1,616 nt of DNA from Escherichia coli (GTDB taxonomy: Bacteria; Pseudomonadota; Gammaproteobacteria; Enterobacterales; Enterobacteriaceae): assembly GCF_003334255.1 (NCBI RefSeq), contig NZ_QOWU01000153.1. One strand, 5' to 3'. The notes under the pieces are model-generated. The model did not search any database. It was not told where the DNA came from and was given only the letters and a program-made list of their open reading frames with translations. Positions 1 to 1,616 of this stretch are shown here, in pieces; the first letter of the stretch is position 1; each line of letters opens with the position of its first letter. A program made the position numbers and the translations under genes.

Positions 1-351
1 AACCAGATGGACCCGGTGTACACGCCGGCGCGAAAAATCCACCTGTACCACTGCGACCATCGCGGCCTGCCGCTGGCGCTTGTCAGCACGGAAGGGGCAA
101 CAGAATGGTGCGCAGAATACGATGAATGGGGCAACCTGCTGAATGAAGAGAACCCGCATCAGCTGCAGCAGCTTATCCGCCAGCCGGGGCAGCAGTATGA
201 TGAGGAGTCCGGCCTGTATTACAACCGCCACCGCTATTATGACCCGCTGCAGGGGAGGTATATCACTCAGGATCCGATTGGGCTGAAGGGGGGATGGAAT
301 TTTTATCAGTATCCGCTGAATCCGGTTCAGTATATAGATTCAATGGGACTG
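1..351 (+). other. Conserved Rhs core C-terminal segment, ending in the PxxxxDPxGL-type demarcation/autoproteolysis motif ([10 protein letters not shown], nt 322-351)
   Basis: YD-repeat-like RYYDP (aa 76-80), DPIGL (aa 89-93) and PxxxxDxxGL (aa 106-115) are read directly from the translation. The segment is GC-rich (about 58% by hand count over nt 1-60), unlike everything downstream. Confidence 0.85.
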
Positions 352-810
352 GCATCAAAATATGGACACTTAAATAATGGCGGATATGGAGCGAGACCCA
401 ACAAACCGCCTACGCCCGATCCAAGTAAATTGCCGGACATAGCGAAACAATTAAGACTGCCATATCCTATTGACCAGGCCAGTAGTGCGCCTAATGTTTT
501 CAAAACATTCTTCAGAGCATTAAGCCCTTACGACTACACACTGTATTGCAGGAAGTGGGTAAAACCAAATCTGACTTGTACGCCACAGGATGATTCCCAG
601 TATCCAGGGATGGATACAAAGACAGCAAGTGATTACCTGCCACAGACAAATTGGCCAACAACTCAATTACCACCAGGATATACTTGTGCAGAACCCTATT
701 TATTCCCAGACATTAATAAACCCGATGGGCCAGCAACAGCAGGGATAGATGATTTGGGTGAAATTTTAGCTAAGATGAAACAGAGAACATCGAGAGGAAT
801 AAGAAAATGA
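1..810 (+). CDS. Rhs-family polymorphic toxin, 3' portion of the gene (5'-partial): conserved core terminus plus variable C-terminal toxin domain
   Basis: Frame 1 is open from nt 1 (aac cag precede the ATG at 7), so the listed ATG is an internal Met and the gene continues upstream. The translation ([12 protein letters not shown]...[47 protein letters not shown]) is the hallmark C-terminal end of the enterobacterial Rhs/YD-repeat core. Stop TGA at 808-810. Confidence 0.9.
352..810 (+). other. Variable Rhs C-terminal (CT) toxin domain, about 152 aa, activity not recognisable; Pro-rich linker followed by a roughly 110-aa C-terminal module
   Basis: It begins immediately after the DSMGL motif, where Rhs proteins carry their polymorphic toxin tips. 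Composition drops to about 45% GC (hand count over nt 421-480). A Pro-rich stretch ([30 protein letters not shown], aa 128-157) precedes a Cys-containing module (C181, C191, C227). I see no HNH, deaminase, ADP-ribosyltransferase or other familiar catalytic motif. Confidence 0.75.
792..799 (+). promoter_or_regulatory. Shine-Dalgarno / ribosome-binding site for the immunity ORF, embedded in the 3' end of the toxin ORF
   Basis: GAGAGGAA at 792-799, with the AGGA core ending 8 nt before the ATG at 807. Consistent with translational coupling. Confidence 0.5.
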
Positions 811-863
811 AAAGAGTTTTGTTCTTTTTGCTGATGATATTTGTTAGTTTTGGTGTTATAGCT
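807..863 (+). other. Predicted Sec signal peptide of the immunity protein (possible signal peptidase I cleavage after VIA, aa 19); a non-cleaved signal anchor is the alternative
   Basis: MKR positive n-region, a 14-residue hydrophobic h-region ([14 protein letters not shown]) and small residues at -3/-1 (V-I-A) before DC. It is not a lipobox, because the residue before Cys21 is Asp. Confidence 0.5.
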
Positions 864-1376
864 GATTGCGAAATACAAGCTAAAGATCATGATTGTTTTA
901 CTATTTTCGCTAAGGGTACTATTTTTTCCGCGTTTCCTGTCTTAAATAATAAAGCCATGTGGAGATGGTATCAGAATGAGGACATCGGTGAGTATTATTG
1001 GCAAACAGAACTGGGTACATGTAAAAATAATAAATTCACACCAAGCGGGGCGAGACTCTTAATTCGCGTCGGGTCACTACGCCTTAATGAAAATCATGCC
1101 ATCAAAGGAACGTTGCAGGAGTTGATAAATACAGCAGAAAAAACGGCGTTTCTCGGCGATCGGTTTAGAAGTTATATAAGAGCGGGTATCTATCAAAAAA
1201 AGAGCAGTGATCCAGTTCAGTTGTTGGCAGTCCTTGATAATTCAATCATGGTAAAATATTTTAAAGATGAGAAACCAACTTATGCTCGAATGACAGCACA
1301 TCTCCCGAACAAAAATGAGTCTTACGAATGTTTAATAAAGATACAGCATGAACTAATTCGTAGTGAAGAGAAATAA
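807..1376 (+). CDS. Putative cognate Rhs immunity protein (RhsI-like), 189 aa, with N-terminal signal peptide or membrane anchor
   Basis: The ORF lies immediately downstream of the Rhs CT with a 4-bp ATGA overlap (start 807-809, toxin stop 808-810), the canonical toxin-immunity arrangement. A Shine-Dalgarno-like GAGAGGAA sits 8-15 nt upstream. The N-terminus [19 protein letters not shown] has a basic n-region, a hydrophobic core and a VIA motif. The region is very AT-rich (about 30% GC by hand count over nt 841-900). Confidence 0.75.
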
Positions 1377-1590
1377 AATCTCTTCCTGAGAAAACAAATT
1401 AATCATTGTGAAAAATTATATAACTCATGGAATAGGTGTTTATTTTGCGTTCCATTTGCAGGGAAAGATCACGTAACGCTACTTTTTTGTACTAAATAAT
1501 TCGAATTTTAAGTTCAACAATTGAGATACTACTTATTGTCTAAAGCTGTTTTTCATAGCTTATACATGATCAAATACTCCTTACATAAAT

Positions 1591-1597
1591 AAGGTGA
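1591..1597 (+). promoter_or_regulatory. Possible ribosome-binding site for a downstream ORF
   Basis: AAGGTGA lies 5 nt upstream of the ATG at 1602. Confidence 0.35.
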
Positions 1598-1601
1598 ACA
1601 A

Positions 1602-1616
1602 ATGGAACTTAAAAAA
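1602..1616 (+). CDS. Possible start of a downstream gene (3'-partial, only 5 codons visible: MELKK)
   Basis: ATG at 1602 preceded by an AAGGTGA RBS-like motif, after about 225 bp of AT-rich non-coding sequence. Too short to assess coding potential or identity. Confidence 0.3.

Follow-up and report, generated by a model that had tools for sequence, protein, structure and literature searches.

The 1,616-nucleotide (nt) stretch of Escherichia coli DNA analysed here (the window) very probably spans the join of two evolutionary units in an Rhs polymorphic toxin gene of the E. coli clade-I (rhsA/B/C) subfamily. The upstream unit (nt 1-351) is the end of a G+C-rich (GC-rich), multi-copy core that is near-identical among paralogues, and the downstream unit (nt 352 to approximately 1400) a single-copy, A+T-rich (AT-rich) cassette consisting of a C-terminal tip (CT) and the gene ybfC; core and cassette, judged by their sequences, have separate histories. 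Megablast placement against 5,426 complete E. coli genomes shows the window to be part of the RhsC element, flanked by kdp/ybfA and ybgA/phrB. The core piece (nt 1-295) has 18,110 matches spread over 3,885 genomes (median per genome 5), compared with 3,648 matches in 3,617 genomes (median per genome 1) for the CT/ybfC piece (nt 296-1376).

An original prediction, made from the sequence alone, had described a conserved core joined to an exchangeable CT/immunity cassette as a case of C-terminal displacement. This description is borne out by the copy numbers (5 versus 1) and by the occurrence of strains with the tip attached and of strains with the tip displaced; no evidence contradicting the architecture was found. 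The essentials have already been published for the same gene family and species, and the join is a textbook feature rather than a discovery. In fact, the displacement model, the GC-rich core and the AT-rich tip are all found in Jackson et al. 2009 (PMC2935791), which also repeats what Hill had described before, a core rich in G+C with a divergent C-terminus (the core extension) rich in A+T. What the locus offers is a clean positive control, in which a changepoint combined with a copy-number contrast finds the boundary of a polymorphic-toxin module to within ~55 nt, and in which strains compared at a single locus display the tip in its attached as well as its displaced state.

A long open reading frame (ORF) enters the window at its left edge and has its stop codon at nt 808-810; another ORF occupies nt 807-1376, with an AT-rich tail behind it. 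These correspond to the final 117 codons of the Rhs core, the CT of 152 residues, the ybfC gene and an ISAs1/H-rpt element's left end. The features of the window are:

nt 1-351, plus strand: Rhs core, 3' end, coding for the C-terminal plug (RHS repeat-associated core domain); GC content 56-59%, GC content at third codon positions (GC3) 0.68
nt 271-285, plus strand: first DPxGL motif, DPIGL (residues 91-95), then KGG (DPIGLKGG at nt 271-294); in all 8 K-12 paralogue copies
nt 293-297, no strand: maximum-likelihood GC changepoint, 59% to 43%, from likelihood changepoint analysis
nt 298-351, plus strand: AT-rich (37% GC) inter-motif segment conserved among paralogues, from the paralogue alignment
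nt 322-351, plus strand: demarcation motif PxxxxDPxGL with Ser for Pro (residues 108-117); predicted autoproteolysis after Leu117
nt 352-810, plus strand: Rhs C-terminal tip (end of the historical ybfO), 152 residues and stop codon, putative toxin; GC content 43%, GC3 0.34
nt 807-810, plus strand: ATGA shared by the stop codon of the CT and the start codon of ybfC, from the sequence
nt 807-1376, plus strand: ybfC, 189 residues, presumed immunity gene with an N-terminal signal peptide (RefSeq annotation); GC content 37%, GC3 0.34
nt 1377-1419, no strand: downstream edge of the mobile cassette, from the end of collinearity and of cross-genus homology
nt 1459-1616, plus strand: left end of an ISAs1-family H-rpt (ybfQ/ybfD), outside the cassette; 85-95% identity to other K-12 H-rpt copies

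The K-12 RhsC element (rhsC-ybfB, the orphan ybfO-ybfC and H-rpt) is the same locus as the window, with the same genes in the same order. In K-12 J53 the gene order is full-length rhsC, ybfB, an Rhs fragment (the old ybfO), ybfC and the ISAs1/H-rpt fragments (ybfQ, ybfD); in coordinates of the extracted J53 locus (L001), rhsC lies at 6740-10933, followed by ybfB, the orphan at 11290-12810 and ybfC. The Rhs fragment, annotated in J53 as a pseudogene 'missing N-terminus', contributes its final 810 nt to the counterpart of the window, which continues through ybfC and the spacer to the first bases of ybfQ (L001:12001-13616) and is identical to the window at 1,615 of 1,616 positions. In K-12-type genomes, the stretch is the displaced orphan downstream of the main rhsC gene and not rhsC itself. 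The sole difference from K-12 is a private base at nt 182 (A, compared with T in K-12, E2865 and all seven aligned paralogue copies), which gives Gln61 in place of the conserved Leu of 'IRLPGQQYD'.

The boundary between core and tip

Two core models end at the same position of the window. NCBIfam NF041261 (RHS_core) is matched over model positions 1146-1261 of 1261 (E=2.9e-69) and ends at residue 117, equivalent to nt 351, and TIGR03696 (Rhs_assc_core), matched over residues 40-117 at 82.1 bits versus a cut-off of 32.5, also ends at nt 351. The paralogues end there as well. Compared with the seven K-12 core ends aligned with the window (rhsA, rhsB, rhsC, rhsD, rhsE and the orphans yibJ and ylbH), the core segment reaches 94-96% identity with rhsA, rhsB, rhsC and yibJ, and 79-84% with rhsD, rhsE and ylbH. 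Up to approximately nt 315 the identity is near-complete; it is confined to the level of the motif at nt 316-351 (8-12 matches per 15 nt) and is random beyond nt 351, with 13-15 matches per 15 nt (rhsA, rhsB, rhsC, yibJ) before nt 315 giving way to 0-10 past nt 351; the CT (nt 352 onwards) has zero homology to any K-12 rhs paralogue. The collapse of identity that was expected from an alignment of paralogues of the same genome is thereby located at nt 351, which is both the homology boundary and the predicted cleavage site.

The break in base composition lies further upstream. The single best maximum-likelihood changepoint of the whole window is at nt 297, and that of the Rhs ORF (nt 1-810) is at nt 293 (log-likelihood ratio 10.6, approximate 95% support interval nt 234-302); none of 500 shuffled controls reached the observed ratio (mean 2.4, maximum 7.5). 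The original prediction, which placed the break at ~350, in coincidence with the demarcation motif, is correct for the end of paralogue homology and is ~55 nt too far downstream for GC content. The same offset is seen in related genes, where the changepoint precedes the end of the demarcation motif by 54 nt in rhsA, rhsC and rhsD and by 58 nt in the E2865 gene (matching the window); in rhsB it follows the motif by 62 nt, with a wide support interval (-95 to +80). A core-to-tip drop in GC content of a like kind is present in rhsA, rhsB, rhsC and rhsD. The core codons conserved within nt 298-351 specify W, N, F, Y, Q, Y, L and N and are intrinsically AT-rich, as they are in most of the paralogues examined. 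The first 54 nt of the drop accordingly represent a coding constraint common to most paralogues rather than a recombination scar, because the inter-motif codons are both conserved and AT-rich by nature.

The motifs themselves resemble those of characterised type VI secretion system (T6SS) effectors. Photorhabdus laumondii Rhs1 is cut at its C-terminal site behind a pair of DPLGL motifs at a distance of 17 residues; the second of these supplies the catalytic Asp, and the Ala that comes next is the first residue of the toxin (PMC8636562). The window likewise contains two DPxGL-type motifs spaced by 17 residues, and its tip starts at Ala118; paired motifs at this distance and a tip that begins with the Ala after the second motif are shared with both P. 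laumondii Rhs1 (PMC8636562) and P. protegens RhsA (PMC8765631), and relatives of the window's tip are also found beside vgrG/T6SS genes. Unlike in these effectors, the second motif of the window is DSMGL (DALGL in one relative) rather than DPxGL, with Ser replacing Pro and with Asp, Gly and Leu retained. Further differences are that no toxin domain is recognised in the tip, that the protein presumed to confer immunity is predicted to be secreted (signal peptide) and that vgrG is not a neighbour of the E. coli rhsC locus.

The variant second motif is located at nt 337-351 of the window, at ~8217-8231 and ~8202-8216 in the extracted loci L008 and L009, and within 8001-8738 in the Comamonas locus (L011). 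That it goes along with the tip family suggests that the exchanged unit includes the last codons of the core. The variants are DSMGL in the window and in Phytobacter, DSIGL in Comamonas and DALGL in a metagenome relative; DPxGL is kept in more distant relatives of the tip and in all K-12 paralogues.

Attached and displaced states of the cassette

The attached state is found in E2865, in which an intact Rhs protein of 1,399 residues, encoded at the same chromosomal site, ends in the window's tip and is followed by ybfC. The 3' 2,312 nt of this arrangement are 99.87% identical to the K-12 orphan and ybfC, and the 1,871 nt that K-12 has in addition consist of ~1 kb of core, the rhsC-CT and ybfB. 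A probe over the K-12 junction between ybfB and the orphan is fully covered in 2,648 genomes, compared with ~3,510 that contain the cassette; on these counts, some three quarters of the genomes with the cassette are in the displaced state. The window matches genomes with an attached and with a displaced tip equally well; it fits both states, and its state of origin is not readable from the window alone. The attached form is also that of enterohaemorrhagic E. coli (EHEC) EDL933, since the EDL933 rhsC primer rhsCR (PMC7216683) matches nt 393-412, within the tip. LH85-a has a cassette of 96% identity at the end of a full-length rhs gene (1,399 residues), in this case at the RhsB site between nik and yhhJ.

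Comparison with this RhsB-site copy also gives the downstream edge of the cassette, with collinearity ending at nt ~1400-1419; cross-genus homology ends at nt 1377-1379. Beyond the cassette, the long LH85-a array (L007 9512-16973) contains NTF2-fold immunity genes, a DUF6258 gene, fragments with pentapeptide and HEAT repeats, an inserted IS2, another orphan Rhs fragment accompanied by a Sel1-repeat gene, and remnants of IS630 and ISAs1.

At the K-12 locus, the orphan retains ~1,060 nt of core (L001 11290-12351; 60.5% GC) before the tip, and this fragment shares ~94% identity with the main rhsC core (L001 ~9420-10480). These observations fit a cassette swap that would proceed by homologous recombination within the core, such that an incoming core fragment with its own CT and immunity gene would push the resident tip downstream, where it would persist as an orphan. 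By analogy with characterised Rhs proteins, the Rhs shell would enclose the tip, an intramolecular aspartyl protease would release it after Leu117 (PMC8636562) and a T6SS would deliver it, the last step being suggested also by the vgrG/T6SS linkage of relatives, while YbfC would protect the producer and its kin. Two points weigh against this account: K-12 is not known to have a T6SS, and the recombination junction inside the core is not locatable, because clade-I cores are 93-100% identical throughout.

The resemblance to the displacement model of Jackson et al. 2009 (PMC2935791) is close, and includes the GC-rich core, the AT-rich and non-homologous tip, the downstream orphan with its core fragment, the orthologous tip attached in other strains and tips that are common to different loci. 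There are also differences. The clade-I loci of E. coli are said in that study to be generally without dissociated tips, whereas in K-12 these are present at rhsA (yibJ), rhsC (ybfO) and rhsD (ylbH), and main and dissociated cores are reported as identical, compared with ~94% identity for the orphan core fragment here. A similar arrangement in Salmonella Typhimurium, in which an orphan truncated at the N-terminus, with a tip and an immunity gene of its own, comes after a full-length rhs gene (PMC7043789), involves different tip families.

Base composition and the origin of the AT-richness

The GC contents counted by hand on sampled lines for the original prediction are exact (58.3% for nt 1-60, 45.0% for nt 421-480 and 30.0% for nt 841-900), and the discontinuity that it proposed is present both in the changepoint analysis and in GC content by codon position. 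By segment, GC content is 59.2% in the core up to nt 294, 43.2% in the CT, ~37% (36.7-36.9%) in ybfC and 28% in the spacer after ybfC. The difference between core and tip is significant whether the Rhs ORF is divided at the changepoint (nt 1-297 versus 298-807, Fisher's test, p=6e-6) or at the homology boundary (nt 1-351 versus 352-807, p=4e-4), and it is larger at third codon positions, where GC3 falls from 0.684 in the core (to nt 351) to 0.342 in the CT (p=2.7e-8); GC content at second positions goes up, from 0.35 to 0.49. The drop is real, and not an artefact of amino-acid composition, because it is far stronger at silent sites and because second-position GC rises. Compared with the flanking housekeeping genes (GC 0.544, GC3 0.581), core and tip are both atypical, in opposite directions, the tip more so.

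The composition of the two cassette genes is a different matter. The claim that toxin and immunity gene differ from each other does not hold at silent sites, where the CT and ybfC are indistinguishable (GC3 0.342 versus 0.339, p=1), and these identical values indicate that the two form one cassette with one history. The overall difference (43.2% versus 36.9%) is marginal (p=0.04) and is confined to codon position 2, because the tip, with 14% proline, is rich in Pro, Thr and Ala. A separate changepoint at nt 807, between CT and ybfC, is unsupported by the Bayesian information criterion. The line at nt 841-900 from which the low value of 30% was taken codes mostly for the signal peptide of YbfC; GC content is 28% at nt 807-866 and 38% in the part of ybfC that codes for the mature protein.

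Three other explanations of the composition bear on how far it records history. That the GC step is a mere by-product of amino-acid composition, reflecting a YD-repeat core on one side and another kind of protein on the other, and is silent on the histories of the two units, is barely credible: the conserved codons of nt 298-351 are AT-rich by necessity and the difference between CT and ybfC lies purely in codon position 2, but the main step is strongest at silent sites and runs opposite to position 2, and copy number, paralogue identity and strain polymorphism independently point to separate histories. This explanation is refuted for the main step by GC3 and holds only for nt 298-351 and for the difference between toxin and immunity gene. 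An improbable alternative is that contained in the original prediction, namely that the cassette was recently acquired from a specific lower-GC organism and still has the composition of its donor. Foreign DNA is classically recognised by its anomalous composition, and a GC3 of 0.34 is far below the 0.58 of the flanking E. coli genes. However, in both protein searches (one word-indexed and one exhaustive with HMMER; 5.8 billion and 1.84 billion proteins), no low-GC lineage with close relatives of the CT or YbfC was found, and all identifiable hosts of such relatives are proteobacteria whose flanking DNA has a GC content of 52-65%. The cassette is AT-rich in each of these hosts, and the claim of a lower-GC donor is on this evidence not sustained. 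Moreover, the cassette is not a recent arrival, because it is present in ~65% of complete E. coli genomes at 95-100% identity, and the tips of rhsA, rhsB, rhsC and rhsD, which are unrelated to it, match it in AT-richness (37-41% GC). In the Comamonas immunity homologue, silent sites are saturated at 34% protein identity, and GC3 is nevertheless 0.33, beside T6SS genes with a GC content of 0.59.

The measured loci all show the same shift. GC contents of core, tip and immunity gene are 0.556, 0.498 and 0.387 in Phytobacter (flanks 0.56-0.58), 0.514, 0.453 and 0.369 in a vgrG-linked metagenome locus (flank 0.553) and 0.509, 0.456 and 0.360 in Comamonas, and the immunity gene is at 26-39% in every measured locus. 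AT-richness is a persistent property of the cassette in every host seen, with no low-GC source in evidence, and its recurrence across hosts of very different GC content argues against 'low-GC donor' as a shorthand. A serious contender, although on balance a little short of probable, is that it represents an equilibrium of Rhs tip/immunity cassettes as a class, maintained by circulation in a horizontal pool or by selection (H-NS silencing, low expression of toxic modules). The same AT shift in five unrelated K-12 tips, and in the cassettes of Phytobacter, the metagenome and Comamonas and the immunity gene of Dentiradicibacter despite their deep divergence, is in agreement with such an equilibrium, as are the generality of GC-poor downstream regions at rhs loci, for which a shared tip pool has been proposed (PMC2935791), and the H-NS marks at the rhsD and rhsE promoters (PMC3946193). 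Against it, there is no H-NS mark on the ybfC-ybfQ row of the same promoter table (PMC3946193), and composition data alone cannot separate selection from frequent transfer.

The tip/YbfC pair and its surroundings

Whatever the cause of its composition, the core-cassette join leads into a tip for which no Pfam, NCBIfam or PADLOC family match was obtained. The CT family is small (28 hits among the 1.84 billion representatives), and all of its aligned members that extend upstream of the CT carry Rhs core sequence. The hosts identified by name belong to E. coli, Salmonella, Phytobacter, Comamonas and Dentiradicibacter, with relatives of YbfC found additionally in E. albertii, Kluyvera, Citrobacter and Pseudocitrobacter. 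A YbfC homologue lies behind the CT homologue in Phytobacter, in a metagenome contig and in Comamonas, a pairing that extends from Enterobacteriaceae to Comamonas and holds down to 34% identity. In Phytobacter and Comamonas, the cassette is an orphan that follows a main rhs gene with another tip, and in Comamonas it is also linked to vgrG/T6SS genes. The 4-nt overlap of stop and start codons is kept in Comamonas (the L011 gene ends at 8738 and the next starts at 8735), and the ATGA overlap suggests translational coupling of the tip and ybfC.

The Dentiradicibacter copy is one truncated fragment within a multi-tip rhs array. In Dentiradicibacter hellwigii (L012 8001-10443), a DDE transposase gene on the opposite strand interrupts the tip relative near its 3' end, such that the called ORF reads into unrelated sequence, and a YbfC-like gene (25.6% GC) is found past the insertion.

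The tip has an invariant signature (SPYDY...C...W...C...P-G...C) with three invariant cysteines, and YbfC a typical N-terminal signal peptide and four invariant cysteines, with a predicted beta-sandwich fold. No relative of known function was detectable for the tip, either by sequence or by fold. The putative toxin/immunity pair is carried by about two thirds of complete E. coli genomes, and it is conceivable, although rather doubtful, that the ybfO tip and YbfC are an uncharacterised toxin/immunity family that acts in the periplasm. Such a pair would provide an Rhs tip with a target outside the cytoplasm, together with a tip-borne cleavage motif in which Ser or Ala replaces Pro; Rhs tips described in the literature mostly act in the cytoplasm.

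Insertion sequences are found both within and beside the cassette. In several E. coli (for example NZ_CP028748.1 and NZ_CP019005.1), the match to the window is split by IS1 or IS903B inside the Rhs fragment or ybfC. The H-rpt end that follows the cassette contains a published RpoD promoter (TTTTCA-17-AATACT, nt 1550-1578) and the ATG of the transposase (nt 1602), and a 16-nt inverted repeat (nt 1443-1458 and 1599-1614) flanks the H-rpt end and the transposase start codon.

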